Assembly (NCBI GenBank): GCA_964513235.1
Contig: CAZEMI010000266.1
Span: forward strand, 34,826 to 98,825
Direction: 5' to 3'
Length of the DNA stretch: 64,000 bases
Source of the DNA: an uncultured Acidobacterium sp.
Lineage (GTDB): Bacteria; Acidobacteriota; Vicinamibacteria; Vicinamibacterales; UBA2999
Under the pieces are notes generated by a model that searched no databases, was not told the DNA's origin, and saw only the letters and a program-made list of their open reading frames with translations. Positions 7,606-62,056 of the stretch are shown piece by piece. The position numbers and the translations under genes were made by a program. The stretch's first letter is position 1, and each line of letters starts with the position of its first letter.

Positions 7606-7617
7606 TCGGTGGCCTAG
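7581..7617. repeat. AATCGGTG word family copy
   Basis: CGAATCGGCGTCGAATCGGTGTCAATCGGTGGCCTAG. It overlaps the first codons (MTPIRRRF) of the VWA gene at 5887-7605. Confidence 0.85.
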
Positions 7618-24765: not shown

Positions 24766-25112
24766 GACGTCTTCTCGCGGGTATGGAGGATCCGGGCGAT
24801 CGCGCCGGCCAGCTTGTCCCACTTGGTGGTTTCCACCGATAACTGCTTCTTGCCTTGCGGGGTCAGGCGGTAGAACTTGGCGCGCCGGTTGTTCTCCGAC
24901 GTGCCGTCTTCGGCCGCGATCCAGCCACGCTTGATCAGGCGATGTAACGCCGGGTACAGCGACCCCTGCTCCACTTGCAGCACGTCATCCGACGTCCGCT
25001 CGATGGCCTTGGCGATCGAATGGCCATGGGCGGGGCCCGGCTGAAGCGTGCGCAGGATCAGGAGATCGAGGGTTCCCTGCAACAGCTCGATGCGATCGTC
25101 TTTAGTAGACAT
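24762..25112 (-). CDS. PadR family transcriptional regulator
   Basis: [29 protein letters not shown]....[16 protein letters not shown] is a winged-helix signature. Confidence 0.9.
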
Positions 25113-33123: not shown

Positions 33124-33174
33124 GCCGCAATTTCTGCAGTCAGCGTGGCAAGGAGATTGCTGAATTCGCCACCC

Positions 33175-42711: not shown

Positions 42712-45273
42712 CTAGGGGATTGGTGACCGCACTACTGCTTGGAAGTCCTGACGTTGCTTCAGTGCCAAGAAATCGTCATCGTCGCTCGCTCGCGCGCGGC
42801 TATACCCACCGTCCACGGCCTGTCGCAGGAATTTCATCGCCTCGTCAGCCTCGCCGCGAAGCGCGTGAATCACGGCGGCACGATAGAGCACGTCCATGTC
42901 CGTGGGGGCCAGCGCGAGCGCCTCGCTGATTCTGGCCGTCGCCTGCCGCGAACGTGCCGCTTTCTCGAGGTACACGGCCAACGTGGCCACCATGCGTGGA
43001 TTCTGCGGATTGACCTTGAGCTCGGCTTCGCCGAGTTCGACCGCCCGCTGGTAGGCGGTCACAGCTTCACCGCGGCGCCCCAGCCTGCTCAGTGCGTCGC
43101 CAAGATTCCGGTGAGTGATGGCCGCGTTCGGGCGCAACTCGATGGCCCGTCTATAGGCATCGATGGCTTCGGCGAATTCGCCGCGACTGTGGTGCAGCGC
43201 GCCGATATTCCCCAAGGTGGGTGCCGACGGTCGAAGGGCGTTCGCCCTCTGCCAATTGAGGAGCGCTAAATCGGTCTTGCCGGTGGCGTGGTAAGCGGTG
43301 CCTAACTGCGAAAAGCCCACGTAGCTGTCGGGTTGCAGCGTCGTCACCTTGGAGAACGCGGCGATCGCTTCGTCATAGCGCGCGGCCTCGTAAAGGACGA
43401 GGCCCATTGAACTATAGGTGCTCCAGTAATTCGGTCGAAGGGCGAGCGCTTTCTGATACTCGGCGACCGACTCATCGATCCGTCCCTGCCGCCCCAGGAT
43501 CAACGCCAGCTCGCGCCGCGCTTCATTGTAGTTGGGCCGCATGGCGAGGGCACGATGCAGTTCCTCAATCGCCTCGCTGGCGCGGCCGCGCCCGGCGAGC
43601 GTAATCGCCAGGGCATAACGAACCTCGGGGCGAGTCGGATCGAGACGAAGGGCGCGCTCCCCTGCCTCGACCGCGCGTTCTGTCCATACCGGGACCTTTG
43701 TCTCCAGGTACTTCAGCCAATAGGCCGCGCCCAACGCGGCGTGGGCCAGCGCGAACTGCTGATCGCGCTCAATTGCCGCAGAGAATGCGGCGATCGCGGC
43801 GTCGAGGTTGCCGGTGATATCCCGCCGCTCCACCATCGCCTGGCCTTGCCAGTAAGCGGCCAGCGCATCGGCGTTGGTCGTCGGCTGGGCGTTCATGCGC
43901 TCGCGCTCGCTCGCCGAGACGCGCACGACCAGCGCGCCGAGCAGGGCCGACGACAATCGCGACTGCAAATCGAAGATGCGATCGAACGTGCCCTCAACGG
44001 AATCCCCCCACGCCACCGTGCGATCGGGCCTGACGAGATTCAGCGACACCCTCAGCGTGCCGCCGGATTCCTGCACGCTGCCGTTGACGAGATAGGTCGC
44101 GCCCAGATCCTTGGCCAGCGCTGCCTCGTCCTTGACCCGGCCGCGAGCTTCGGCGACCGACGCCCGCGACAGCACGGTGACCGTCGGCAACGCCGCCAGG
44201 CTCGAGATCAAACTTTCCGCGATGCCGGCGGCCACGAAATCCCTCGAGGGATCGCCGCTGTTGTTGGTCAGCGGTATCACCGCGATCACCGGCGGTGACG
44301 AGGCACTGCCGGGCGGCGGCGGCTCACGCCTCATCCACAGGCCGGCCCCGGCGAGGGCCATCAGCACGACGGCGGTAGCCATGGCCATCAGCCGCGTGCG
44401 CGCGCGCGGCGCCGGCAGGCCGGCGGTGCTCGGCGTCCCGTAAATCGCGCGCAATTGCGCCAGCACCTCACTCGCCGACGCCGGCCGCTGGTCGCGATCA
44501 CGCGCGAGGAGCGAGGCCACGAGCCGCTCGAGCGCCGGCGGAACGAGCTGGCCGGTCGACGACAGCGGCGGGGCGTCTTGCGATAATTTCGATGATGCCA
44601 GTTGCACCGGATCGTGACCGGCAAACGGACGCTTGCCGCTGATCATTTCAAACAGGACCACGCCGAGCGCGTAGAGGTCGGCGCGCTCGTCGACGGCCGA
44701 CGACACCATCTGCTCGGGCGCGGCATAGCTGGCAGTGCCGACCAGCCCAAGACCGCTGGCGGTCTGCACCGGACCGGCGGAGGTCTGCGTCATGCCAACA
44801 CCGAGGAGCCGGGCGATGCCGAAATCCAGCACCTTCACGTGCGCGCCCGCACCGATGATGACGTTGGCCGGTTTGAGATCGCGGTGCACGATGCCGATCG
44901 CGTGGGCGGCTGCGAGCCCCGTCGCAATCTGGCAGGCGATGTCGACCGCCTCCGGAGCGGGCAGACGGCCGCGCGCGATGCGCGCGTGCAGCGTTTCGCC
45001 TTCGACGTACTCGAAGACGATCACGATCTGCCCGTCCTGCTCGAGCACATCATGGACGGTGGCCAGATGCGGATGATTGAGCGCCGCCGCGGCCCGGGCT
45101 TCGCGCATCAGCCGGTCGCGTGACGCCTCATCCTGATGATCGGCAGGCCGCACCATCTTGAGCGCGACGTGGCGATGCAGCCGGCTGTCTTCGGCAAGCC
45201 ACACCGCGCCCATGCCGCCTGTTCCGAGGTGGCGAAGAATCCGGTACGGGCCAACGGTTGCGCCTATGTGCAC
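42712..45273 (-). CDS. Ser/Thr protein kinase with TM segment, periplasmic module and TPR repeats
   Basis: The GTG at 45273 gives VHIGATVGPYRIL.., parallel to the paralog's MHAGATVGPYHIL. Hanks motifs GxGGMG, VALK, HRDLKPAN, DFG and APE are present, followed by a TM segment, an IAVIPL..NSGDP module and multiple TPRs. Confidence 0.85.
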   Translation of the reverse strand: MHIGATVGPYRILRHLGTGGMGAVWLAEDSRLHRHVALKMVRPADHQDEASRDRLMREARAAAALNHPHLATVHDVLEQDGQIVIVFEYVEGETLHARIARGRLPAPEAVDIACQIATGLAAAHAIGIVHRDLKPANVIIGAGAHVKVLDFGIARLLGVGMTQTSAGPVQTASGLGLVGTASYAAPEQMVSSAVDERADLYALGVVLFEMISGKRPFAGHDPVQLASSKLSQDAPPLSSTGQLVPPALERLVASLLARDRDQRPASASEVLAQLRAIYGTPSTAGLPAPRARTRLMAMATAVVLMALAGAGLWMRREPPPPGSASSPPVIAVIPLTNNSGDPSRDFVAAGIAESLISSLAALPTVTVLSRASVAEARGRVKDEAALAKDLGATYLVNGSVQESGGTLRVSLNLVRPDRTVAWGDSVEGTFDRIFDLQSRLSSALLGALVVRVSASERERMNAQPTTNADALAAYWQGQAMVERRDITGNLDAAIAAFSAAIERDQQFALAHAALGAAYWLKYLETKVPVWTERAVEAGERALRLDPTRPEVRYALAITLAGRGRASEAIEELHRALAMRPNYNEARRELALILGRQGRIDESVAEYQKALALRPNYWSTYSSMGLVLYEAARYDEAIAAFSKVTTLQPDSYVGFSQLGTAYHATGKTDLALLNWQRANALRPSAPTLGNIGALHHSRGEFAEAIDAYRRAIELRPNAAITHRNLGDALSRLGRRGEAVTAYQRAVELGEAELKVNPQNPRMVATLAVYLEKAARSRQATARISEALALAPTDMDVLYRAAVIHALRGEADEAMKFLRQAVDGGYSRARASDDDDFLALKQRQDFQAVVRSPIP

Positions 45274-45311
45274 GAGGGGCCTACGGCAGAGGCAGCGAGA
45301 GGATAGCACCG

Positions 45312-45347
45312 AAAAACCTCTCGGGCGGCCGCTGCCGCGACCGCCCG
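45312..45347 (-). terminator. Rho-independent-type terminator after the first kinase/partner module
   Basis: On the minus strand: CGGGCGG-12 nt-CCGCCCG, followed by AGAGGUUUUU. It sits between the partner gene stop (45358) and the second kinase start (45273). Confidence 0.5.
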
Positions 45348-45357
45348 AACCGACAAC

Positions 45358-45771
45358 TCAGTTCTGCGGAAACTCGATTTCAGGGTCCTCCTGAGCGTCA
45401 AGGGCGTGGACGACATACTTATAGACACCCGGCTTCACGCCCTCGGCACTGATCCGGCTCCAGCTGCGAATATTGAGCTCCTGGTGGCCCCACGGACCGC
45501 CAGCAGGCCACGTGATCCTGACGGGCACATCGGTACCGTCGATCAGGTTCACCACGGTCCATTCCACGTGACCCGGTCCGGCGTAGGCATGTTGCGGCGC
45601 AGTCCGGATCTTGTTCCCCGAACCTGTTCTGCAGAGGAAGATCGTGATTTGCGACGTCGTGCCGCTGTCCGCCGCCACGGTCGCCGACCGGCGCGATGTC
45701 GCGGCTGACTTCTTCACCGTCTGCTTCTTCGGCGCCTTCCTGGCAGCCGCCTTGCCCTTCTTCTTGCTCAT
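45358..45771 (-). CDS. Small kinase-associated partner protein, paralog with Lys-rich N-terminus
   Basis: ATGA overlap with the upstream kinase stop, with GAGGTG 5 nt upstream of the ATG. The N-terminus is MSKKKGKAAARKAPKKQTVKK. The C-terminus GVYKYVVHALDAQEDPEIEF matches 42275-42703. Confidence 0.55.
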   Translation of the reverse strand: MSKKKGKAAARKAPKKQTVKKSAATSRRSATVAADSGTTSQITIFLCRTGSGNKIRTAPQHAYAGPGHVEWTVVNLIDGTDVPVRITWPAGGPWGHQELNIRSWSRISAEGVKPGVYKYVVHALDAQEDPEIEFPQN

Positions 45772-48341
45772 CGTTTCACCTCAGCTGGGGTTGCAACCAT
45801 GGCCGCAAAGCGCGGCATGGGTCGGAGCCTGACGAAATCTTCTTCCTCTGCCACGGCGCGCGTTGACAGGCCATTCGCCATTGCGCGTTCGATGGCGTTC
45901 AGAGCGTGGTCGCTGCGATCGGCGATGGCGTGAACGATCCCCTCACGATGGATCACCTGCGGATCTTTCGGGGCCAGCGCCAATGCGCGGCGAATGCTGC
46001 GCATCGCCGCGGCATCGTCACCGGCCTTCGCCTCATAGACGGCCAGACGCGCGATGGCTCTCGCGTCCAACGGACTGACGGACACTTCGGCCTCCGCCTG
46101 GGTGGCGGCGCGCTGGTACGCCTCGCGTGCGTCACGCAGCCGCCCGAGCTTGGCGTAGGCGTCACCCAGATTGCGATTGGTGACGCCGCTAGTCTGGCGA
46201 ATCAACAGTGAGCCTTGATAGGCCGCGGCGGCCTTCGCGAAATCACCCAGGCCGTAATAGATCGTGCCCATGTTGGAAAACGTATCGGCGCGGGGCTGAA
46301 TGGCGTTGGCCCGTTCGTAATAATCGAGGGCGCGCTTGTTGTCGCCCAGCTGCTGCGCCGTGGCGCCCGCGCGCGTGAGGGTGATCGCCGACGCGGGCGA
46401 CAGGGCGAGCGTCTTCTCGAGGGCAACGAGCGCTTCTTCGTAACGTCCGGCGTTGTACAACGAAACCGCCATATCGCTATGCACCGCCACCGCGTTGGGC
46501 CGCAACGCCATCACTTTCCTGAATTCGGCGAGGCCTTCATCCACCTGGCCTTGCCGCATCAAGATCGTGGCGTGCAGACGAATGGCGTCTTCGTATGTCG
46601 GCTGCAGCGCCAGGGCCCGCTCGACTTCGGCTTGCGCGTCGGCGTACTGGCCGCTGCGAAACAGCGTCAACGCCGCCGTGTAGCGCACGCTGGGACGGTT
46701 CGGCTCGAGCTCGAGCGCGCGCTTGGTCGAGTCCATCGCCCGCTGTGCCCACAATTTATCGTTGGTCTGCAGATAGACCTGCCACTGCGCCTCCGCCAGG
46801 CCGGCATGCGCCATCGCGAAATTGCCGTCGGCAGTGAGCGCGGCTTCGAACTCAGCCAATGCTCCGTGCACATTGCCGGTGAGATCACGACGATCCAGGA
46901 GAGCCCGGCCCTTCCAATAGGCGATCTGCGCCGGACCGCTGCTGGTAATTGCCGCCGCCGGCTCGGCCCGCTCACCCGCCGGCGTCTGATCGGCAATCGC
47001 GTCGCCCAACATCACCGCCAGGCGTTTCTGCAGCTCGAATAGATCGCTGGTGGTGCCCTCGACGGTGTCGCCCCACGCCACCGACGCATCCGGGCGCTCG
47101 AGATTCAGCGTCACGCGCAGGCGATCCGCAATCGCATGAACGGAGCCGGTGACGAGATAGTTCGCATCGAGCGCCCGCACAAGACTCGACCGATCGGGAT
47201 TCTGTTGCCGGCTGTCTTCGACGGCACTGCGTGACAACACGGTCACCCGTGGCGCCGACGCGAGGCTGGTGATCAGGCTCTCGGCCAGCCCCGTCCCGAG
47301 ATAATCATTCGCCGGATCTCCGCTCATATTCGACAACGGCAGCACCGCCACCACCGGCGCCGTTGGCCCAAGTTGTTGCGCGTTCCATTGCACGCGCATC
47401 ACCAGCGCGATCACGGCGGCGAGCACCACGGCCCCGGCGACGTAGGTGCTGACCGGCATGCGGCGGCGCAACCGGACCGTGCGGCGCGCGAGCGGCGACG
47501 ATGCGGTGTCGCGCAGCGGGTTCAGCTCGACCCGCACTTCATCACCAGACGAAGGCCGCCTGGCGGGATCGCGATCGAGCAGCCGCGCCACCAGCGACTG
47601 CAGCCGCGGCGGCACCCAGGTGCCGCTCGCCGGCGAGAGCTTCGGCGCGCCGTCTCGCAGCACCGACGTCGCCAGCACCACCGGATCGTGTCCCGGGAAC
47701 GGCCGCCGGCCGCTAATCATCTCGTAGATGATCACGCCGAGCGCGTAGAGATCGGCGCGGCCGTCGACGTTGCGCGACAAATACTGTTCGGGTGCGGCAT
47801 ACCCGGGCGTGCCGACCAGGCCGACGCCGATGGTGCCCGGCACACTCTGCGCCATGTCCGCGCCGGCGGGGACGAGCCTTGCGATGCCGAAATCGAGCAC
47901 CTTCATCCGGCCGTCCGGGCCGAGCACCACGTTCGACGGCTTCAGGTCGCGATGAATCACCCCTTGCGCATGCGCGGCCGCGAGCGCATCCGCCAGCTGC
48001 CACGCCACTTCAACGGCTTCGGCGACCGACATCGGGCCGCGGTGCAGCCGCATCGCCAACGTGTCGCCCTCGACGTACTCGAAGACCACGACGACCTTGC
48101 CCTCGACGTCGAGGACGTCGTGGACCGTGGCAATGTGCGGATGATTGAGCGCGGCGGCGGCGCGGGCCTCGCGCATCAGACGCTGGCGGCCCTCCGTCGT
48201 GTCGGCAGCCGCCGTCTTCACCGTCTTGAGCGCGACCTTGCGATTGAGCCGCGTGTCTTCGGCCAGCCACACCACGCCCATGCCGCCGGCGCCAAGCTGG
48301 CGGAGGATGTGGTACGGGCCTACGGTGGCGCCGGCGTGCAC
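45768..48341 (-). CDS. Ser/Thr protein kinase with TM segment, periplasmic module and TPR repeats
   Basis: Hanks motifs (GAGGMG, VALK, HRDLKPSN, DFG, APE), a TM segment, a VAVLPLSNMSGDP module and TPR repeats. It is a paralog of 42712-45273. Confidence 0.85.
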   Translation of the reverse strand: MHAGATVGPYHILRQLGAGGMGVVWLAEDTRLNRKVALKTVKTAAADTTEGRQRLMREARAAAALNHPHIATVHDVLDVEGKVVVVFEYVEGDTLAMRLHRGPMSVAEAVEVAWQLADALAAAHAQGVIHRDLKPSNVVLGPDGRMKVLDFGIARLVPAGADMAQSVPGTIGVGLVGTPGYAAPEQYLSRNVDGRADLYALGVIIYEMISGRRPFPGHDPVVLATSVLRDGAPKLSPASGTWVPPRLQSLVARLLDRDPARRPSSGDEVRVELNPLRDTASSPLARRTVRLRRRMPVSTYVAGAVVLAAVIALVMRVQWNAQQLGPTAPVVAVLPLSNMSGDPANDYLGTGLAESLITSLASAPRVTVLSRSAVEDSRQQNPDRSSLVRALDANYLVTGSVHAIADRLRVTLNLERPDASVAWGDTVEGTTSDLFELQKRLAVMLGDAIADQTPAGERAEPAAAITSSGPAQIAYWKGRALLDRRDLTGNVHGALAEFEAALTADGNFAMAHAGLAEAQWQVYLQTNDKLWAQRAMDSTKRALELEPNRPSVRYTAALTLFRSGQYADAQAEVERALALQPTYEDAIRLHATILMRQGQVDEGLAEFRKVMALRPNAVAVHSDMAVSLYNAGRYEEALVALEKTLALSPASAITLTRAGATAQQLGDNKRALDYYERANAIQPRADTFSNMGTIYYGLGDFAKAAAAYQGSLLIRQTSGVTNRNLGDAYAKLGRLRDAREAYQRAATQAEAEVSVSPLDARAIARLAVYEAKAGDDAAAMRSIRRALALAPKDPQVIHREGIVHAIADRSDHALNAIERAMANGLSTRAVAEEEDFVRLRPMPRFAAMVATPAEVKR

Positions 48342-48345
48342 CCGT

Positions 48346-48936
48346 CTATTGCCCCGAGAGGTAGGCCTTCGACGCCGCCTCGTCTTTGAGCGGCACGACC
48401 TTGTCCGGATCGATGCGGATCATGAGGTAGCTGATGTGATCGTCGATCCTGGTGAACCAGTGGCCGGTGCCGGCCGGGATGATGATCGCATCGCCGGCCT
48501 TGAGCTGATGCGTCACGCCGTTGCGGATCGACGCGGCGTTGCTGCCGGGACCGTTCAGCAAACGCACGTTCTCGTTGGTCGCCGGCCGCCGTTGCGCATC
48601 GACCAGGTCGGGACCCGTCACGAGCGTCGCCGAACCGGACATCACGTGATACACCTCGCTCACGTGATCGTGCTCGGCGACGGAATTATTTGCAGGCTGG
48701 TCGAGCCTGGTGCGATGCACCATGCCAATCGCCACGCCGCTGTTGCCGGCGTCGACCGCTCGCACCTGCTGATCGATCTGCCTGCGCGCGATCGCGCGCT
48801 TCAAGTACGCCTGCAGCTCGTCGTTGGAAACGTAGCTCGCGGGACAGCCCTTGCAGGTAGCAGTGGGAACGTTCTGCGCATATACAGCCGCCATCGTCAT
48901 CACGACGGCGCAGGCAATCAGCGTGGGCTTCAGCAT
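48346..48936 (-). CDS. Secreted cupin-domain protein
   Basis: Signal MLKPTLIACAVVMTMAAVYAQ and cupin motif GDAIIIPAGTGHWF. It lies 4 nt upstream of the kinase gene. Confidence 0.6.
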   Translation of the reverse strand: MLKPTLIACAVVMTMAAVYAQNVPTATCKGCPASYVSNDELQAYLKRAIARRQIDQQVRAVDAGNSGVAIGMVHRTRLDQPANNSVAEHDHVSEVYHVMSGSATLVTGPDLVDAQRRPATNENVRLLNGPGSNAASIRNGVTHQLKAGDAIIIPAGTGHWFTRIDDHISYLMIRIDPDKVVPLKDEAASKAYLSGQ

Positions 48937-48966
48937 CGGGGAATCCTCTCAGGAGAGGATTCTACG

Positions 48967-50214
48967 TCATGGATCCCTCGTGATCAGCCTGACGCTGCGC
49001 TGATACGTGAGATACGCGGCCGCCCACTGGAGCATCACCGACATGCGGTTGCGGAAGCCGATCAGGAACAGGATGTGGATAAACAGCCAGAGCAGCCAGC
49101 CGAGATAACCCGAGACGCGAAGGAAGCCAAAGTCGGCGATGGCGGCATGGCGCCCGATGGTCGCCATGTTGCCCGGGTCGTAATAGTGAAACGGCCTGGT
49201 GGGCTGCCCGGCAATCAGCCGCCCGATATTCGCCGCGGCGTGCGCGCCTTCCTGCTTGGCGACCTGCGCCACACCAGGCAGCGGCGTGCCGGTCTGGTGC
49301 GAGAACGACGCGAGATCGCCGGCCACGAACACGGCGGGATTGCCGGGCACCGAAAGATCGGGGTTGACGATCACGCGCCCGGCGCGATCGAGCTCCTGGC
49401 TCAGATCGCGTGCGATCGATTCGGCGGCCACGCCCGCGGCCCACATGATGGTGTGGGCCTCGATGCGTTCGTCGCCGATGCGCACCACGCCGGGCTCGAC
49501 GTTGGTCACGGCACGGCCCTCGCGCACGTCGACGCCCAGCCGCTGCAGCGCGCGCCGGGCCGAGTCGCGCAGGTTCTCGGGGAACGCGGGCAGGATCGAC
49601 GGGCCGGCTTCAATCAGCAGGATGCGCGCGGAGGCCGGATCGATGGCGTCAAACTCCTCTTTGAGCGCCTGCCGCGCGATCTCGGCGAGCGCGCCGGCCA
49701 GCTCCACCCCGGTGGGTCCGCCGCCGATCAACACGAACGTGAGCAGGAGCCGCTGCCGCGTGGGATCGGTTTCGCGTTCGGCGTCTTCGAAGGCCAGCAA
49801 CAACCGGCGGCGAAGCGCGAGCGCATCATCCAGCGTCTTGAGGCCGGGAGCGATGCCGCTCCACTCATCGTGGCCGAAGTACGAGTGCGTGGCGCCGGCG
49901 GCCACGATCAGATAGTCGTACTTCAGCCGTTCGCCGCGATCGAGGACCAGCTGTTTGGCCGAAGGTTCGATCCGATCGACGTTGGCCAGCAAGACCCTCA
50001 GGCGGGCCTGCTTGCGCAGGATCCAGCGGATCGGGGAGGCGATATCACCTGGGGACAGTCCCGCCGTCGCCACCTGGTACAGCAGCGGTTGAAAGACGTG
50101 GTGGTTGTGACGATCGACGATCGTCACCTCGCAGGGCACCTTGCGGAGACGCCGCGCCGCATCCAGGCCGGCAAACCCGCCGCCAATAATCACCACTTGG
50201 GGGAGGGCGGGCAT
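48967..50214 (-). CDS. ndh: Type II NADH dehydrogenase (NDH-2), FAD/NAD(P)-binding
   Basis: The ATG at 50214 gives MPALPQVVIIGGGFAGL...IVDRHNHHVFQPLLYQVATAGL. A second dinucleotide motif is LIGGGPTGVELAG. Confidence 0.8.
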   Translation of the reverse strand: MPALPQVVIIGGGFAGLDAARRLRKVPCEVTIVDRHNHHVFQPLLYQVATAGLSPGDIASPIRWILRKQARLRVLLANVDRIEPSAKQLVLDRGERLKYDYLIVAAGATHSYFGHDEWSGIAPGLKTLDDALALRRRLLLAFEDAERETDPTRQRLLLTFVLIGGGPTGVELAGALAEIARQALKEEFDAIDPASARILLIEAGPSILPAFPENLRDSARRALQRLGVDVREGRAVTNVEPGVVRIGDERIEAHTIMWAAGVAAESIARDLSQELDRAGRVIVNPDLSVPGNPAVFVAGDLASFSHQTGTPLPGVAQVAKQEGAHAAANIGRLIAGQPTRPFHYYDPGNMATIGRHAAIADFGFLRVSGYLGWLLWLFIHILFLIGFRNRMSVMLQWAAAYLTYQRSVRLITRDP

Positions 50215-50235
50215 GTCCTCTATTCTAAGAGGTGC

Positions 50236-52269
50236 ATGCCCAAGCCTGGTGTCGCGCCTCCGGAATCCACCGTCACCACCGCGTGTCCGCTCGATTGTCC
50301 TGATGCGTGCACCTTGAACGTCACGGTGCGCGGCGGGCGCGTCACCAAGATCGACGGCTCCAGCGACAACCACATCACCAACGGCTACATCTGCGCCAAG
50401 GTGCGGCGCTTCCCGGAACGCGTCTACGGGGACGATCGCCTGCTCTATCCGGCGATGCGGCGCGGGAGTAAAGGCGCGGGGCTGTTCAAGCGTGTGACCT
50501 GGGACGCTGCGCTCGATCTCGTCGCGTCGAAGATGCTCGAGGCGCGCGAGGGCGCGGGCGCGGACACCATCCTGCCGCTCTGTTATGGCGGATCGAACGG
50601 CTTTCTGACGCAGGATTACGCGGACGCGATCCTGTTCCGGCGGTTCGGCACCTCGCGGCTGCTGAAAACCGTCTGCGCGGCACCAACCGGCGCGGCCAAC
50701 CTCGGTCTCTACGGCAAGATGGCGTCGGTCAGCTACGAGGACTACCCCGCGGCGAAGATGATCATCGTGTGGGGCGTGAACCCGGGCGTGTCGGGCATTC
50801 ATCTCATGCCGTTCCTCAAGGAGGCACGCGAGAACGGCGCCGACATCGTGGTGATCGATCCGCGCGCCACGTCCGTCGCGCGGCAGGCGGACCTGCACCT
50901 CGCGGTGCGGCCGGGCACCGATCTCCCGGTTGCCCTTGCGATTCACCGCTACCTCTTCGAGGAGGGGCACGCCAGCCAGACGTTCCTCGATGCGCACACC
51001 ACCGGCGCCGCGCAACTACGCGAGAAAGCACACGGGTGGACGTTCGAGCGCGCCGCCGAAGTCAGCGGCCTCAGCGCCGATCACCTGCGGCAACTGGCCG
51101 AACGGTATGCGAAGACCTCACCGGCGCTCGTGAAGTGCGGCTGGGGCCTCGAGCGCAATCGCAACGGTGGCAGCGCCGCCGCGGCGGTGCTGGCGCTGCC
51201 CGCGGTGGCCGGCAAGTTCGGCGTCCGTGGCGGCGGCTACTCGATGAGCAACTCGACGTCGTGGAACATCGATCGCACGTGGCTCACCGATGCGGAGCCG
51301 CCGACCCGCGCGGTGAACATGAACAAGGTCGGGCGCATCCTCACCGAGCCCGAGGGCGCGCCGGTGAACGTGCTGTTCGTCTATAACTGCAACCCGGTGG
51401 CGATCCTTCCCGATCAGCGGCGCGTGATCCGCGGCCTCGAACGCGACAATCTGTTCACGGTAGTGTTCGACCAGGTGCTGACCGACACGGCAATGTATGC
51501 CGACGTCGTGCTGCCGGCCACGACGTTCCTGGAGCACTATGACTTCGCGAAGGGCTACGGGCCGGTGACCCTGCAACTGGGTAAGCCCGTGATTGATGCG
51601 GTCGGCGAATCGCGATCGAACACCGACGTGTTCATGGACCTCGCGCGCCGGCTCGATCTCACCCTGGACGGCGATCCCGCCGACGATCTCGACGCGATGC
51701 TGGCGGTGCTCGCGGAGCTGCCGCCGCCGATCGGCGACGACTTGCGAGAGAACTGGGTCGCGAAGCATCCGCCGCAGGGCGGCCGGCCGGTGCAGTTCGT
51801 CGACGTGTTCCCGAAGACCGCCGATCAGAAAGTCGACCTCTTCCCCGCCGTGCTCGACACGCAGGCGCCGATGGGGCTGTACGGCTTTCAGCCCGATCCG
51901 GGAACCGCGGAATTTCCGCTGGCGCTGATTTCGCCGGCCAGCGATCGCACGATCAGCTCCACGCTCGGCGAGTTGTCGCGCCCCGAGGTCAGGCTGGAGA
52001 TGAATCCCCAGGACGCCGAACCGCGCGGCATCGAGGATGGCGATCGCATCCGCGTCTGGAACAACCTGGGCGAAGTGCGGATCAAGGCGCAGCTGACGCC
52101 GCTGGTCAGGCCGGGGCTCGTGACGATGCCGAAAGGCGTGTGGCGAAGGCACACCGCCAACGGCTACACGTCGAACGCCTTGACGCCCGATGCGTTGACG
52201 GACCTTGGAGGGGGCGCGTGCTTCAACGACGCACGCGTCCAGGTCGAGAAGTCAGAAGGGAAAAGTTAG
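50236..52269 (+). CDS. Molybdopterin (bis-MGD) oxidoreductase family protein
   Basis: ATG at 50236. An N-terminal 4Fe-4S motif CPLDCPDAC...C, long molybdopterin oxidoreductase core blocks, and a C-terminal dinucleotide-binding beta-barrel (GDRIRVWNNLGEV). There is no in-frame TGA. Confidence 0.8.
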   Translation: MPKPGVAPPESTVTTACPLDCPDACTLNVTVRGGRVTKIDGSSDNHITNGYICAKVRRFPERVYGDDRLLYPAMRRGSKGAGLFKRVTWDAALDLVASKMLEAREGAGADTILPLCYGGSNGFLTQDYADAILFRRFGTSRLLKTVCAAPTGAANLGLYGKMASVSYEDYPAAKMIIVWGVNPGVSGIHLMPFLKEARENGADIVVIDPRATSVARQADLHLAVRPGTDLPVALAIHRYLFEEGHASQTFLDAHTTGAAQLREKAHGWTFERAAEVSGLSADHLRQLAERYAKTSPALVKCGWGLERNRNGGSAAAAVLALPAVAGKFGVRGGGYSMSNSTSWNIDRTWLTDAEPPTRAVNMNKVGRILTEPEGAPVNVLFVYNCNPVAILPDQRRVIRGLERDNLFTVVFDQVLTDTAMYADVVLPATTFLEHYDFAKGYGPVTLQLGKPVIDAVGESRSNTDVFMDLARRLDLTLDGDPADDLDAMLAVLAELPPPIGDDLRENWVAKHPPQGGRPVQFVDVFPKTADQKVDLFPAVLDTQAPMGLYGFQPDPGTAEFPLALISPASDRTISSTLGELSRPEVRLEMNPQDAEPRGIEDGDRIRVWNNLGEVRIKAQLTPLVRPGLVTMPKGVWRRHTANGYTSNALTPDALTDLGGGACFNDARVQVEKSEGKS

Positions 52270-53525: not shown

Positions 53526-53683
53526 CGACCAAGTCGCGCCGGCGGACCAGCTCAGCCCGTGTCGCCGTAGCGGCGAGCAGCAGCGATGCCGTTCTTCGGG
53601 CTCCACAAGGGAAGACTCCAGCCGGGAAGGTGATCGGTTCTTCCCGACAAGAGGTTCCTCCCGGCAAGTATTACAATGTCCTT

Positions 53684-54013
53684 ATGGCAATGTGTGGCGG
53701 TCCCGCGGGACCAGGCGACAAGCCGATCACGAATACGAGCGGGCGCGTGGTCAAGTGCGTGAAGTTCCAGAAGGACCTTCCCGGCCTCGACGCGGCGCCG
53801 TGGCCGGGCGAGATCGGCCAGCGCATCTACGAACAGGTGTCGGCGCAGGCGTGGAAGCTCTGGGAAGAGCGCCAGAAGATGATCCTCAACGAGTACCGGC
53901 TGATGCCCTGGCAGAAGGAAGGCCAGGAGCTGATCCGGAAGCAGATGGAAGATTTCTTCTTCGGCGAAGGCTCGGCGTTGCCGCCGGATTTCGTTCCGCA
54001 GCAGGCTAAATAA
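53684..54013 (+). CDS. yggX: Fe(2+)-trafficking / oxidative damage protection protein YggX-like
   Basis: VKCVKFQKDLPGLDAAPWPGEIGQRIYEQVSAQAWKLWEERQKMILNEYRL aligns well with my memory of E. coli YggX. Start at M 53684 or 53690. Confidence 0.75.
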   Translation: MAMCGGPAGPGDKPITNTSGRVVKCVKFQKDLPGLDAAPWPGEIGQRIYEQVSAQAWKLWEERQKMILNEYRLMPWQKEGQELIRKQMEDFFFGEGSALPPDFVPQQAK

Positions 54014-55325
54014 CCGGGATCAGGGGATCGATCGTGAAGCGCAGCGCCGCGTGCGCTTCACGCACCGACCCTTCGGCATCGCGTGGCGTGGCCGCGCGCC
54101 CGAAGATAAATCCCAGATAACTGGCGCCTTCCGGCAGCGCGTGCAGCTGCTGGTCGGGCCGCGCGGTGATCTGGATCTCGTCGATGTACGGCACCGCCGC
54201 CGCCGTTTCCAGTCCATGCACCGTGCGGAAGGTGCCGCTGCGCGGAATCGGGATCATCATCACCGCCGACGCCAGGTGCTCGCGCCGCCACTCGCCCGTC
54301 GGCTCGCCGGCGGCGTGCATCAGCAGCAGATCCTCGAAGCCGATGCGCTGTCCCCGGCGCTCGAAGCGCAGCGTCTTCGCGCACAACCCGCCGATCGGCC
54401 GCGCCGCCACCTCCAGCACGTAGACGCCCTTGCTGTTGACGCGGCATTCGGCGTGTACCGGACCGTGATAGAGGCCGAGCGCTTGCGCCGCGCGCGTGAC
54501 CGCCGAGGTGACTTGCGCCTGGATGCCGGCGTTCACCTGCGACGGCGTGACGTAGATCGTTTCCTCGAAGAACGGGCCCTCGAGCGGATCGGGCTTGTCG
54601 AAGATGGCGATGGTGCGCAGCGTGCCCCACTCGAGCAGGCCCTCGAGGGCGAACTCGGCGCCGGGAATGTACTGCTCGATCTGGATCACGTCGGCTTCCG
54701 GATCGCGCATCTCCTTCACTTCCGGAGACGCCAGCAGGCGGCGAACGCGATCGAACGCCGACGCGAAGCTGAGGTCATCGTCGGCGCGAATCACGCCGCG
54801 GCTGCCCGACAACACGGTCGGTTTCAACACCGCGGGAAAGTCGACGCGCGGAAGGATCGTGAGTGGATCGACGCCCATCGGCACCGCGAAGGCGGCCGGG
54901 ACCGGCAGGCCGGCGGCCTTGAACTTCTCGCGGGCCAGGCGCTTGTCGCGCGCCGCCACCGCGGCTTCCGGCGGGTGGCCCGGGAGGTCGAGCAGCCGCG
55001 CCACCTGCGCGGCCATCACCGTGGGCCGATCGCCGACGGCCAGCACGCCGTCCACCGGGCGCTCTTCGAGGGCTTTCAGGACGCCGTCGACGGATCGCCA
55101 CTCTTCATGGAAGCGAACGGGGATGGCCCGATCGCTCCACGGATCCTCGAGCTGATCGCAGCGGTCGGTGGCGTAGACGAGCTCGATGCCGAGACGCTCT
55201 GCGGAGGCCGCGAACATGCGCGTCTGGTAGCCGGTGGTCGTCGCGAGTAGAAGTACGCGTTTCGCACCCTGCGCACCCTGTGCACCCTGTGCACCCTGCG
55301 CACCCTGTGCACCCTGTGAATTCAT
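54006..55325 (-). CDS. ATP-grasp domain protein (L-amino-acid-ligase-like) with N-terminal (QGA)n repeat
   Basis: The ATG at 55325 forms an ATGA with the stop of the extended radical SAM ORF. A pre-ATP-grasp KRVLLLATTTGYQ is followed by AVLKP..LSGSRGV, IEQYIPG.EF..EG and HAECR...G.YVLEVAARPIGG. The ORF-track start at 56072 is a shadow extension. Confidence 0.8.
   Translation of the reverse strand: MNSQGAQGAQGAQGAQGAQGAKRVLLLATTTGYQTRMFAASAERLGIELVYATDRCDQLEDPWSDRAIPVRFHEEWRSVDGVLKALEERPVDGVLAVGDRPTVMAAQVARLLDLPGHPPEAAVAARDKRLAREKFKAAGLPVPAAFAVPMGVDPLTILPRVDFPAVLKPTVLSGSRGVIRADDDLSFASAFDRVRRLLASPEVKEMRDPEADVIQIEQYIPGAEFALEGLLEWGTLRTIAIFDKPDPLEGPFFEETIYVTPSQVNAGIQAQVTSAVTRAAQALGLYHGPVHAECRVNSKGVYVLEVAARPIGGLCAKTLRFERRGQRIGFEDLLLMHAAGEPTGEWRREHLASAVMMIPIPRSGTFRTVHGLETAAAVPYIDEIQITARPDQQLHALPEGASYLGFIFGRAATPRDAEGSVREAHAALRFTIDPLIPVI
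55264..55317. repeat. 6 x 9-bp tandem repeat GCACCCTG(C/T), in frame in the ATP-grasp N-terminus
   Basis: Six units counted on the DNA. It encodes (QGA)n directly after MNS. Confidence 0.9.
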
Positions 55326-56608
55326 AGCAGAGCCACCTGCTCTGCGGTGGGTTCCGCTCAACAGTACCAGGGTTCGTCCAGGTAAGGGATCGCGGAGCGA
55401 GACATGCGCGGCGCGTTGGCCAGCTCCATCATCGTCCGTTGCAGCGCGTCGACGCGAGGATCGGGATGCGTCCACGGATACGTCAGGGTCTTGGGATCGA
55501 AGGGACCGATCACGGCTTGAATGTCTGGCAGCTCGAGCAGTCGTGACTGCCAGGTCACGAGGAGGCGAATGGCCAGCTGCACGGGCGCCACATGAGCCGT
55601 GAGCCCGAGATCGTCCACCACGTTCAGCAGATCGACGTAGGTGGCCACCGTGGTCCACGGCGTGAACGCGACAAACGTCGGCACCAGCGTCAGGCCGGCG
55701 GATCGGCACAGTTCCGCCGCGAGAATGAAGTCCGCGCGGGTGTGGCCCTTGTCGAGCTTGGCGAGCACGCGATCGTCCACCGACTCCACGGCGCTCGTCA
55801 CGAACAGGCATCCGGTCCTGGCCAGCAGCGGCAGCAGCTCGCGCTGCGCGAGGAGGTGCTCGACCTTGATGATGGCGTCGTAGGTCACCTGCGGATGCTC
55901 GCGATGCAGCGCGTCGACGATCTTGCGCGCGTGCGTTGGGCCGTTGAAGAAATCCGGATCGCCGAAGGTGATGTGCGTGGCGCCGTGCGCCACGTGCGAT
56001 CGCACGTCGGCCATCACGACCTCGACGGGCACCACCCGAAACTGCCCGTCGTAGACCGGCACGATCGGGCAATGCCGGCAGCGGTGCTTGCAGCCGCGCG
56101 AGGCATCGGTCGCGCCGACGATCTTGGTGGTGCCGTCGGGCATCTGCAGCTTCGCATAGCGATCGAGCGAAGGCAGACCGGATCGATCCGGTGCAATGAA
56201 GTTGAGACGAGGGAGTTGCCGGGAGGGCGGCCCATTTGTGCCGCCGGTCCTACCGGTCGCGAGTGTAACAAGATCTTCTTCCGCCTCAGGGCCGAGGATC
56301 ACGCTGACGCCGTGCTCGCGCAAGATCGCTTCGTTGAGCGGCGCATACAGGCCATAGGCGCAGGTCGTCGCGGCGGGATTGATCGCGCGCACGCGATCGA
56401 TCATCGGCAGGGCCAGGCGCGTGGCGGTGTGCATCGGCAGGTAAAACGCCACGAGCGACGCCGCCGACACCGCGTGGGGATCGAGACGATCGCGCGACAG
56501 GTCGATCGCGTGCACCTCCATACCAGCGCGCCGCAACCACGCCGCCGGCGAGGCGACGCCAAACGGCTGCCGGCCGAGATCGTAGGTGCTGAGGAGCAGG
56601 ACGGCCAC
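55322..56608 (-). CDS. B12-binding-domain radical SAM protein, probable selenoprotein (CUAEP tail; TGA 55358-55360 read as Sec)
   Basis: GTG at 56608 with AGGA upstream. An N-terminal B12-binding-like domain and a CxxxCxxC in SRGCKHRCRHCP. The ORF-track stop TGA is followed in frame by AEPTAEQVALL-TGA, with a SECIS-like hairpin at 55327-55345. If the TGA is a true stop the CDS is 55358-56608. Confidence 0.7.
55327..55345 (-). other. SECIS-like stem-loop downstream of the in-frame UGA
   Basis: The mRNA sequence GCAGAGC-AGGUG-GCUCUGC gives a perfect 7-bp stem with a 5-nt loop containing GGU. The stem starts 13 nt after the UGA. The AGGUG loop could alternatively serve as the SD for the ATP-grasp gene. 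Confidence 0.5.
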
Positions 56609-56632
56609 GTCCCGATCCTACCGCGCCCGCAG

Positions 56633-58132
<1,500 letters not shown>

Positions 58133-59188: not shown

Positions 59189-62056
59189 TCACTCCATGTT
59201 CACCGGGCCGAGATATTTTTCGAGCCAGTCCAGGATCGGCTTCACGATCTCGAGACGCGGGGGCACGTGGCCGCTCTTGATGATGTGATGCACTTTCTCT
59301 TGGCTTCCCAGCGCCTGAAACATCGGCAGCTGCGACTCTTCGTACGGGAAGCGGAAGTCCTCGCGGCCGTTGATCATCAGGGTCGGAACCACGACGCGCG
59401 GCGCAAAGTTGATCTGGTCGGCTTCGGGCGCAAACCGGCTGTTGTCAAAACCGCCGGCCATCAGGATGCTGGCGCGGAACCGCCGCTCGACGGCGGTGAT
59501 GTTCACGCCTTCCCGCGCTCCCCAACTGAAGCCGTAATAGGCCAGCTTCTGTGCATCGATATCGGGACGCGATACCAGGTAATCAATCGTCCGCCGGACT
59601 TCCTTCACATTCTGAATAACCAGGTCGCGGTGGCCAAGCGATGCCCGGCGCGGCAGTTGCTTCAACTGGCGCTCGAAGGTCGAGTTGTAGGTAGGAAAGA
59701 TCAGCGCGCGGCCGCTCTTCACGATGAAATCGAAAAAGTACGGGGTGCGGTCGGTCGACCGCGGCCCTGCTTGCGCGCTCGATCCCGGGAACATCACGAC
59801 CGCCTGAAATGGCGGACGCCCACGGGCCGGCAGATACAAATCGGCGGTGATCCGCTCCTCGCCATAGCCGGCGTCATACGACACCCGTTCGATGGTGTAA
59901 TCAACCGTGCCGGCGACAACGCCTTCGCTCGTCGCGCCAATCGGCTTCGGATCGTATTCATAGAGGCGCGCATAGGCGGCGAACGTCACGTCATCGACGG
60001 GGCGCTCCGCGGCATAGTTGCGCCAGGTCCGCTCGATCGGCGCCAGCAGCTGCGGCGGGGGCGGCTCGAGGTACTTGGCCAATCGCACGCCATTGGTCTC
60101 GGAGCGGTCGAACGGGTCATAGGCGTAACGCGACCGATAGGTGTAGGTGACCTCGTTCCATCCACCGCCGTAATTTGAGCGCTTTTGCCCGGTGGCATTC
60201 CACGTCCACTCACGCACGTTCCCCGCCATGTCGTGAGTGCCGAAGAAACCGAGCCCTCGAAACGCTCCGACCCGCGCCGGACCCGTGCCGCGGTAATTGC
60301 TCAAATCCATGAGGACCGGCGGCGTGAATGCGTAGGTCGCGGCGAGCCAATGCCATGCGGTCGGCAGGCGCTTGCCTTCGAACTCCGCGAGGGCGGCGGC
60401 CTCGTACCAACTGATGCCGCGGACGGGAAAGTCGGCTTCGCCTTCCGGATAGCTGCTGGATTCCCACGTGGAAGGGCCAGGCTGCCCGGTCTTGTCGGTC
60501 AGCCGGGCCATCGCGTCCCGGAACGTCAGCGCTTTCCCCTCCACCTGGAAAGGCACCTTCCAATACGTTGGGTCACGGTAGCCTCCGGCGTCGACAAACG
60601 CTTTGTATCGCCGGTTTGTGACTTCGAATTTGTCGAGCCAAAACGCCGGACGGCGAACGGACTCCTCGTCGATCGTCACGGCGCCGCCTGGCACATACAC
60701 CATGTCAACCGGCGTCTCCGAGAGTGGAAACAACGTCACGGTCTGATTCAGGGGTGGGGCAGCGATCTCGACGGGAGTAAAGCCCTCCTTTTGGAATCGA
60801 AGCTGCACGAATTGCGCCGGCAGGCGCAGGTCCACCGGTGTGATGCCGGCCTGCAACCACGCCGGGTCATCACCCTCGTACGCTCGCCACGACACGGCAG
60901 CGCCCGGCGGGTCGGTGGTGAGCCGAACGGGCGCAGAAAGCCTGGTCAACAACCGCTGGAATTCCACGTCATCGCCGATCACCGGCCCCACCGTTTGCAG
61001 CATCGTGAACGCGTCGGCCATCCGACCCTGATCACCGAGCCGTTCAACTTCAGGCAGCACGTCATAACGCGCCGATTGCCGCTGCCAGGCGCGATAGCCG
61101 AACCAGGATCCGATCGCCATGATCAGGATGGCCGCGGAAGCGCCGGCGATCAGCACGCGGCGTGATATATACGGCCGCCGCGTCGCCGCCTCACGTGCCT
61201 TCCGCAAGTCGGTTGCGAGGTCCGTCCCCGAAATGAACCGTCGTTCCGGATGCTTTTCCAGGCAGCGCTCGACGATGCGTGCCAGTGAGACGGGTGCGCC
61301 CGGACGCAATGTGCGAATGGGTGCCGGCGTATGCGAGAGCACCGCCATCCGCGTGGATATTTGCGAATCGCCTTTGAAGGGACGGGTGCGCGTCAACAGT
61401 TCGTACAGCAAGGTGCCGAACGAGAAGATGTCGGAACGCTGATCGACGGGATGTCCCGCCGCCTGTTCAGGGGACATGTAGGCCGCCGTGCCGAGAACCG
61501 CCCCCTCCGCGGTGTAGAGATCTCCGCCCTTGGTTTCCGCGTCCGATGAGACCTCGACCAGCTTGGCGAGGCCAAAATCGACCAACTTGGCGTCGCCGCG
61601 TGAGGTGACCATCACGTTCGCCGGCTTGAGATCACGGTGCACGATGCCGGCGGCATGGGCCGCCGCCAGTCCGTCGGCTATCCCACACGCGACATCGAAA
61701 ATCCGGTTCAGCTCCAGCGGGCCAGACTCGATCAGGCGATCGAGCGGCTGGCCCTCGATCCACTCCATGACGATGCAGTCGTGGTCCTCGCCGTCGATGC
61801 GGCCGCGCTCAACCTCGTAAATCGTGACGATGTTCGGGTGATTGAGCGCGGAGGCCGCCTTCGCCTCGCGCCGGAACCGCTGGCGGCGCTCCTCGCTGAG
61901 CGACCGGTCGGGCCGCAGCACCTTGATCGCCACCGTGCGTTCGAGTCGAAGATCTTCGGCCTTGTAGAGGACACCCATCCCGCCGCGGCCCAGTTCGCCA
62001 ACGATGCGGTAGTGCGAAAGGATTGTGTGGGTCATGGCCACCCCGCGAAACTGCAC
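59189..62056 (-). CDS. Ser/Thr protein kinase fused to FGE/SUMF1-type domain and C-terminal alpha/beta hydrolase (S9/DLH-like) domain
   Basis: Hanks motifs (GRGGMG, VAIK, HRDLKPAN, DFG, SPE), then a TM segment. The FGE-sulfatase-like blocks are FWLDKFEVTN..Y..F, GISWYEA.A.A, MAGNVREWTWN and YGGGW. The hydrolase part has GFSWG and GHVPP. The start may be M at 62035. Confidence 0.75.
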   Translation of the reverse strand: MQFRGVAMTHTILSHYRIVGELGRGGMGVLYKAEDLRLERTVAIKVLRPDRSLSEERRQRFRREAKAASALNHPNIVTIYEVERGRIDGEDHDCIVMEWIEGQPLDRLIESGPLELNRIFDVACGIADGLAAAHAAGIVHRDLKPANVMVTSRGDAKLVDFGLAKLVEVSSDAETKGGDLYTAEGAVLGTAAYMSPEQAAGHPVDQRSDIFSFGTLLYELLTRTRPFKGDSQISTRMAVLSHTPAPIRTLRPGAPVSLARIVERCLEKHPERRFISGTDLATDLRKAREAATRRPYISRRVLIAGASAAILIMAIGSWFGYRAWQRQSARYDVLPEVERLGDQGRMADAFTMLQTVGPVIGDDVEFQRLLTRLSAPVRLTTDPPGAAVSWRAYEGDDPAWLQAGITPVDLRLPAQFVQLRFQKEGFTPVEIAAPPLNQTVTLFPLSETPVDMVYVPGGAVTIDEESVRRPAFWLDKFEVTNRRYKAFVDAGGYRDPTYWKVPFQVEGKALTFRDAMARLTDKTGQPGPSTWESSSYPEGEADFPVRGISWYEAAALAEFEGKRLPTAWHWLAATYAFTPPVLMDLSNYRGTGPARVGAFRGLGFFGTHDMAGNVREWTWNATGQKRSNYGGGWNEVTYTYRSRYAYDPFDRSETNGVRLAKYLEPPPPQLLAPIERTWRNYAAERPVDDVTFAAYARLYEYDPKPIGATSEGVVAGTVDYTIERVSYDAGYGEERITADLYLPARGRPPFQAVVMFPGSSAQAGPRSTDRTPYFFDFIVKSGRALIFPTYNSTFERQLKQLPRRASLGHRDLVIQNVKEVRRTIDYLVSRPDIDAQKLAYYGFSWGAREGVNITAVERRFRASILMAGGFDNSRFAPEADQINFAPRVVVPTLMINGREDFRFPYEESQLPMFQALGSQEKVHHIIKSGHVPPRLEIVKPILDWLEKYLGPVNME

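Follow-up and report, generated by a model that had tools for sequence, protein, structure and literature searches.

Whether a UGA codon ends a protein or is read as selenocysteine (Sec) is the question raised by a radical S-adenosylmethionine (SAM) gene on the minus strand of a 64,000-nucleotide stretch of DNA from an uncultured Acidobacterium sp. of the Vicinamibacterales (assembly GCA_964513235.1, contig CAZEMI010000266.1, positions 34,826 to 98,825), the whole of which we call the window. As called, the open reading frame (ORF) comprises 416 codons on the minus strand, running from a GTG at 56608 to ...L-D-E-P-W-Y-C, where it meets a TGA at 55360-55358, and homologues align with the window protein from residue 1-3 onward. 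Past this TGA the same frame continues GCG GAA CCC ACC GCA GAG CAG GTG GCT CTG CTA TGA, encoding A-E-P-T-A-E-Q-V-A-L-L and a stop. An earlier reading of the letters alone, hereafter the original prediction, had proposed that the UGA is recoded and that the resulting C-U-A-E-P tail was missed by ORF calling; the coordinates and letters that it gave for this minus-strand tail all proved correct.

We consider it very probable that UGA 55360-55358 is read as Sec, directed by a bacterial Sec insertion sequence (SECIS) element downstream of it, and that the product is a selenoprotein of the NCBIfam family NF040546. At the sequence level, the basis of this reading is membership of that family, the alternation of Cys and UGA codons among orthologues, the conservation of coding sequence beyond the UGA, and a hairpin that covaries and is specific to UGA forms. 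Sec recoding in the NF040546 family is already curated, in an NCBI equivalog model and one preprint, and the window case is a rediscovery. Standard ORF callers cut the protein 12 residues short, from Sec417 onward. A 2026 review does not list the family in its table of selenoproteins, and we found no functional study of it in the literature. A scan of the window disclosed no other in-frame TGA with coding sequence on both sides.

The codon after Cys416 among orthologues

A protein search covered a collection of 5.8 billion proteins, to any of which the window protein is at most about 91-93% identical, and the closest 120 entries share 70-91% identity with it. All but one of these (119/120) stop exactly at ...EPW[YF]C or, in a single entry, at ...EPRYC. 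That database homologues end at this Cys indicates that gene callers stopped at the same codon.

At the DNA level, we fetched 80 orthologous genome loci (L001-L080), nearly all of them from metagenome-assembled genomes of Acidobacteriota belonging to the Vicinamibacterales, Bryobacterales and Terriglobia; two are cut short and 78 are informative. Directly after the conserved Cys, 57 of these have TGA and 21 have TGC or TGT, the Cys alternative that the original prediction had foreseen for CCAEP forms. Neither TAA nor TAG occurs at this position, and A-E-P is conserved, which is the opposite of what the original prediction had named as refutation, namely orthologues ending here in TAA or TAG with an unconserved tail. 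The UGA forms provide an internal control. Over 57 Sec-form rows, comprising the window and 56 loci, the recoded position is TGA throughout, while the terminal stops are TGA in 33, TAG in 17 and TAA in 7 cases. This count bears on an alternative, which we regard as very unlikely, that the TGA is a genuine stop at Cys416 and that the hairpin after it serves the following ATP-grasp gene in ribosome binding, translational coupling or mRNA stability. TGA is indeed the commonest stop (58% of true tail stops), but such a stop would have to be reconciled with Cys codons at the exact position in 21 orthologues and with the lack of TAA and TAG in all of them.

The sequence after the codon points the same way. 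A-E-P follows the recoded position in every locus readable that far, and motif and frame are kept in 78 of 78. In the A-E-P codons, positions 1 and 2 are invariant or nearly so and position 3 has an entropy of 0.9-1.5 bits; variation confined to position 3 is the signature of translated sequence, and this protein-coding pattern of substitution again argues against a stop at Cys416. Of the tails, 46 are 11 codons long and the others 18, 25 or 29, all in frame, and AEPTAEQVALL, the tail of the window, is the commonest among the orthologues.

A sequencing or assembly error is a further alternative, in which the true codon would be TGC or TGT and the window copy a CCAEP form. One base change would suffice, and Cys forms occur in the family; however, the same TGA stands in 57 independent assemblies, the database homologues are truncated at this very codon, and the window carries the SECIS hairpin that Cys forms lack. 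We hold such an error to be extremely improbable.

The same split extends beyond the close relatives, since 150 more distant cluster representatives fall into sequences ending at ...W[YF]C and sequences continuing as ...W[YF]CCAEP.... A Sec form outside the Acidobacteriota is seen on the megaplasmid of Thermomicrobium roseum (NC_011961.1, L081 7938-9440), where ...ESWFC is followed by TGA GCG GAG CCG; the plasmid table gives this entry the family name, although the protein listed there is truncated at the Cys.

The hairpin downstream of the UGA

In the SECIS of the Escherichia coli fdhF type, a minimal upper stem-loop lies about 11 nt after the UGA and presents an apical-loop G and U that are bound by SelB. 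The hairpin in the window resembles this element in being located within the coding sequence, in its 12-nt spacer, in its short loop, whose G is invariant and whose U is near-invariant across a gap-free alignment of 57 UGA forms (A1), and in the maintenance of its stem by compensatory changes in the family. It differs from the fdhF element in its sequence, in having no evident bulged U, in occurring in the family with two loop registers (AGKUG and AGUU), and in lying in the last codons of its gene, abutting the start of the next one. The original prediction had placed GCAGAGC/AGGUG/GCUCUGC at 55327-55345, exactly where it is present, starting 13 nt after the UGA; the first base of the stem is the 13th nucleotide, while the spacer itself measures 12 nt.

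Compensatory changes in the stem are evident from A1, in which its seven positions form standard pairs in 84% of cells, against at most 52% when the 3' arm is slid. Pair 23-39 is CG in 28 sequences, AU in 11 and GC in 11, pair 24-38 is AU in 30, GC in 12 and GU in 8, and pair 26-36 is AU in 39 and GC in 7, with a covariation score for the stem that was reached by none of 500 shuffles. In several of these compensations, the 5'-arm change alters an amino acid and its 3'-arm partner is synonymous, lying in a Leu codon, a pattern that selection at the protein level does not explain.

The hairpin also follows the identity of the codon. Its mean folding energy is -10.2 kcal/mol in the UGA forms and -4.2 kcal/mol in the Cys forms (Mann-Whitney p = 4e-8), and when it is scored as present by a threshold of -7.5 kcal/mol, it is found in 53 of 56 UGA forms as opposed to 1 of 21 Cys forms. 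Its distance from the UGA is constant, whereas ATP-grasp homology begins, depending on the locus, 39 to 945 nt from the codon that follows Cys416. Moreover, the hairpin occurs in all six UGA forms that have no downstream ATP-grasp gene and is missing in 15 of the 16 Cys forms that do have one, both of which run counter to a structure serving the ATP-grasp gene. No terminator-like character was found in it. Given the compensatory changes, the specificity for UGA forms and the persistence without the ATP-grasp gene, the hairpin is, on comparative grounds, a SECIS element and not merely a ribosome-binding site. The alternative offered by the original prediction, in which AGGUG is simply the ribosome-binding site of the ATP-grasp gene, thus fails, as the hairpin tracks the UGA and not the downstream gene; the AGGUG loop of the window may additionally serve as a Shine-Dalgarno sequence, which cannot account for its conservation.

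Under the Sec reading, UGA 55360-55358 would be no terminator, and the 19-nt hairpin 12 nt downstream would act as a bacterial SECIS with a G/U apical loop. As in standard bacterial Sec insertion, SelB, with GTP and Sec-tRNA(Sec), would bind this loop and bring Sec to the ribosomal A site, where the UGA lies, whereupon translation would run 11 further codons to the TGA at 55324-55322, giving a predicted product of 428 residues that ends in ...EPWY-C416-U417-AEPTAEQVALL.

The second SECIS register consists of a 7-bp stem on a 4-nt AGUU loop and accompanies the longer tails (AEPTGDQLVPI..., 18-29 codons) in L019, L041, L046, L049, L053, L055, L061, L066-L069 and L071, while the 11-codon tails have the 5-nt AGKUG loop.

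Several points weigh against the Sec reading. The AGGUG loop lies 8 nt before the ATG of the ATP-grasp gene, where it could be a Shine-Dalgarno sequence. The minimum-energy fold that RNAfold gives for the window sequence is a different, mutually exclusive pairing. Positions 55280-55400 yielded no match to an Rfam SECIS family at a permissive threshold, the matches obtained being chance ones, to a microRNA and a long non-coding RNA. Finally, selA, selB, selD and tRNA-Sec were not found in the 64-kb window, in which small ORFs were not all scanned. The Rfam result carries little weight, since the bacterial SECIS models in Rfam are few and gene-specific, and the alternative pairing was discarded, its covariation across relatives being that expected from shuffled sequences.

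The position of the loop also favours a genuine stop at Cys416, as does the closure of the extended frame in an ATGA. This overlap with the ATG at 55325-55323, which the original prediction had pointed out, is present in the window. It is, however, not conserved in relatives and is gone already in one that is 87% identical, whose ATG is out of the ligase frame, on which evidence we rejected the overlap as a conserved coupling device. Around the same junction, a 9-nt tandem repeat of 6.1 copies (CAGGGTGCR on the minus strand, 55264-55318) encodes (Gln-Gly-Ala)x6 immediately after the ATP-grasp start codon. In the 87%-identical relative (L084 11306-11360), the repeat is degenerate and stands in another frame with respect to the upstream ATG, so that a GTG start is implied there; more distant homologues begin near M-x-R-V-L-L-L, without the repeat.

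Regarding the Sec machinery, SelA, SelB and SelD are absent among the 31 larger ORFs of the window in an NCBIfam scan, and a weak match to "Nterm_to_SelD" (102 bits against a cutoff of 310) was set aside as a pyridine-nucleotide disulfide oxidoreductase only. No tRNA-Sec was detected in the window (ARAGORN, Rfam), whose only tRNA gene is one for tRNA-Leu, or in 60 related loci (ARAGORN). A tblastn search with E. coli SelD, the query being 98.8% identical to real E. coli records, found no SelD-like sequence in the window or the 80 loci. This lack within 64 kb would also fit a stop at Cys416. The Sec trait is documented in Acidobacteria, and its loss is frequent among bacteria (Zhang et al. 2006, PMC1794560).

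Both that frequency and the missing sel and tRNA-Sec genes are compatible with a relic gene in a genome that has lost its Sec machinery, so that a tail-less product or low-level near-cognate read-through would result. We find this improbable, and no less so than a genuine stop: the stem in the window is a perfect 7 bp, and the tail retains all 11 codons and matches the commonest orthologue tail exactly, which is unexpected after selection has been lost, and the lineages of this family that have abandoned Sec show UGA replaced by UGC or UGU together with decay of the hairpin.

Family identity and possible chemistry

The name that the original prediction had given, CUAEP/CCAEP-tail radical SAM (seleno)protein, is that of NF040546. 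With U written as C, the window protein scores 592.4 bits against this model, above its curated cutoff of 500, and the UGA-truncated form, at 572.8 bits, is still over it. Taken by themselves, the C-terminal 32 residues reach 34.7 bits (E = 7.7e-9) over profile positions 442-467 of 468. As the tail aligns there by itself, the end of the model is the post-UGA tail, a match that the original prediction had proposed as a check and that also disfavours a genuine stop at Cys416. By these scores, the gene at 55322-56608 on the minus strand is an orthologue of this equivalog family, with which it shares a full-length match, the CxxxCxxC core, the ...W-[YF]-C-[U/C]-A-E-P tail and the alternation of UGA and Cys codons; no tested feature differs, the window copy being the form with a short linker and an 11-residue tail.

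Haft and Gwadz (bioRxiv 10.1101/2022.07.06.499078) named NF040546 as an uncharacterised CU-motif selenoprotein, noting that CU motifs are rare and suggesting contact with heavy metals or metalloids. Other CU-motif selenoproteins (SaoL/MerB-like, HgcA, MerT variants, KCU-star) also bear a vicinal Cys-Sec near the C-terminus and are typically truncated in databases, but their folds and neighbourhoods are unrelated to those of the window gene. Among the radical SAM selenoproteins listed in the table of the 2026 review, TIGR04167 (GxxU type) and TrsS (NF045646) likewise combine a radical SAM protein with Sec, yet they belong to other subfamilies and place Sec in another motif and position; neither TIGR04167 nor NF045646 is among the NCBIfam matches of the window protein at E-values up to 0.01.

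The protein matches Radical_SAM (PF04055) at 49.2 bits, whereas the B12-binding domain PF02310 scores 17.5 bits, under its threshold of 32.1. An AlphaFold2 model (predicted local distance difference test score, 74.6) places a Rossmann-like N-terminal domain before the radical SAM core. Foldseek returned AprD4, OxsB, MgmA and MiaB as the best structural neighbours of this model, and the N-domain alone resembles corrinoid-binding proteins, including the N-domains of AprD4 and OxsB. The "B12-binding" of the original prediction is therefore to be taken as an architectural label suggested by the predicted model, and not by the Pfam score, and not as established cofactor use.

The second-best NCBIfam model is ArsL (NF040542, RCCLKC-tail), at 259.7 bits over the full length, under its cutoff of 450. 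ArsL cleaves SAM to a 3-amino-3-carboxypropyl species, which it joins through a C-As bond to arsenite bound at its C-terminal CCxxC tail; on removal or mutation of the tail, product formation and arsenic binding are lost, with SAM cleavage persisting in at least the tail-truncated enzyme. The two proteins are homologous over their whole length, share the N-terminal Rossmann-like domain followed by a radical SAM core, and end in a Cys-rich tail that starts with CC or CU, the CC of RCCLKC aligning with the C-U/C-C of the CUAEP family after a variable linker. The ArsL-family cluster of Bacillus cereus also contains an ATP-grasp gene. A sequence search of the PDB found no ArsL structure, returning AprD4 and MgmA only, at low similarity.

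This resemblance allows a tentative proposal on the chemistry. The functional tip of the enzyme is probably the Cys-Sec pair. At the active site, these vicinal residues, borne by a flexible C-terminal tail, may hold a soft heteroatom as substrate or serve as a redox pair, and an amino-acid-like radical SAM product would then be used by the downstream ATP-grasp amino-acid ligase. The ligase lies directly downstream on the same strand in 57 of the 65 loci with enough sequence, an adjacency that suggests a small amino-acid-like product. By analogy with ArsL, such a function, with the Cys-Sec tail at the active site and the product passed to the ligase, is possible, although we would not put it at even odds. 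The analogy rests on about 32% identity between the window protein and ArsL; the C-U-A-E-P tail offers two soft ligands in place of the three Cys of R-C-C-L-K-C, no arsM, arsR, ACR3 or aquaglyceroporin genes lie near the window gene, and the phylum-wide synteny could also reflect a housekeeping role.

A wider pathway, common to the Acidobacteriota and built on the CU-tail enzyme and the ligase, is more speculative still, and we consider it unlikely as a whole. In such a pathway, 3-amino-3-carboxypropyl from SAM would be transferred, as in ArsL, onto a heteroatom (an arsenic, selenium or sulfur species) held on the Cys-Sec tail, and the unusual amino acid so formed would be joined into a dipeptide by the ligase and moved by the neighbouring peptide permease. 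Since the SECIS lies in the last codons and, in the window, abuts the ligase start, translation of the ligase could also depend on successful Sec insertion and thereby on the supply of selenium.

Members of the family are numerous among soil Acidobacteriota, and no family is closer to ArsL, the enzyme that forms arsenic-carbon bonds; the conserved pairing with an amino-acid ligase provides a concrete lead to the chemistry of the enzyme.

Gene neighbourhood and other features of the window

The features of the locus are collected in Table 1. In the window, the radical SAM gene is accompanied by genes for a POT permease, an alpha/beta hydrolase, the ATP-grasp ligase, a YggX-like protein and an FkbM-type methyltransferase. 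The order of radical SAM gene, ATP-grasp ligase and convergent YggX-like gene is syntenic across Acidobacteriota (53630-58132 and L001-L080), and in 49 of 58 loci the YggX-like gene lies no more than 3.5 kb downstream. A POT permease gene adjoins the radical SAM gene in 22 of 73 loci. The two are usually divergent, on opposite strands; in the window they are co-directional. Besides, a LigD 3'-phosphoesterase gene is found in 33 of the 80 loci.

Table 1. Coordinates of the radical SAM gene, its recoding signals and the adjoining genes
Feature	Position in window	Strand	Remarks
Full coding sequence, predicted CUAEP-tail radical SAM selenoprotein	55322..56608	-	428 aa including Sec417; GTG start 56608; TGA stop 55322-55324
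CxxxCxxC motif, C173-K-H-R-C177-R-H-C180, radical SAM [4Fe-4S] ligands	56069..56092	-	Invariant in alignments A2 and A3
Cys416 codon TGT, first of the vicinal Cys-Sec pair	55361..55363	-	Cys invariant in all orthologues and in the B. cereus ArsL-family protein
In-frame UGA, read as Sec417 (predicted)	55358..55360	-	TGA/Cys-codon alternation in orthologues
UGA-to-hairpin spacer, 12 nt, coding for A-E-P-T	55346..55357	-	Position 3 variable, positions 1 and 2 (near-)invariant for A-E-P
SECIS-like hairpin	55327..55345	-	7-bp stem GCAGAGC/GCUCUGC, 5-nt loop AGGUG; within the last 7 sense codons
True stop TGA of the predicted selenoprotein	55322..55324	-	Overlaps the ATG of the next gene (ATGA)
ATP-grasp L-amino-acid-ligase-type gene, 439 aa	54006..55325	-	Pfam ATPgrasp_N, ATP-grasp_4, LAL_C2
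YggX-like Fe(II)-trafficking / "oxidative damage protection" gene	53630..54013	+	NF003817, 113 bits; convergent with the ATP-grasp gene
POT/PTR2-family oligopeptide:H+ symporter gene	56633..58132	-	TIGR00924, 435.7 bits; probable ATG 58132; immediately upstream

Outside the phylum, the T. roseum copy has a pyridoxal phosphate-dependent aminotransferase, an MFS transporter and a GNAT acetyltransferase as neighbours, while the RCCLKC form on B. cereus plasmid pBFR_2 (NZ_CP009606.1, L082/L083) occurs with ATP-grasp, ArsR, a MIP channel, GNAT and ACR3. The ATP-grasp protein of pBFR_2 is 29% identical to that of the window (E = 6e-20), so the pairing of an ATP-grasp gene with this radical SAM clade may recur. 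Transporters and enzymes that modify amino acids, as neighbours, fit a small amino-acid-like product that is later ligated.

At 2-5 kb from the radical SAM gene, the window and 21 of the 80 related loci carry a molybdopterin oxidoreductase of the dimethyl sulfoxide reductase superfamily (about 675 aa, at about 50245-52269 on the plus strand in the window), which scores under the threshold for every named subfamily. With such a score and no sign of Sec in it, its identification as a Sec-containing formate dehydrogenase was rejected. Gene boundaries are ambiguous in this region, where a plus-strand ORF (48145-52269) overlaps a minus-strand ORF (48967-51015) with an NDH-2-like match.

Three large Ser/Thr protein kinase genes flank the region on the minus strand, at 42712-48341 and 59189-62056. 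Two are fused to TPR repeats, while in the third the fusion partner is a domain showing weak, sub-threshold matches (60 and 51 bits) to the EgtB/SenA sulfoxide synthases of ergothioneine and selenoneine biosynthesis. The window is placed in the Acidobacteriota by the taxonomy of the orthologues together with two VWFA-domain proteins of acidobacterial type and two duplicated permeases of the ADOP family, encoded at 5887-9725 (minus strand), 22159-24822 (minus strand) and 33145-35619 (plus strand).

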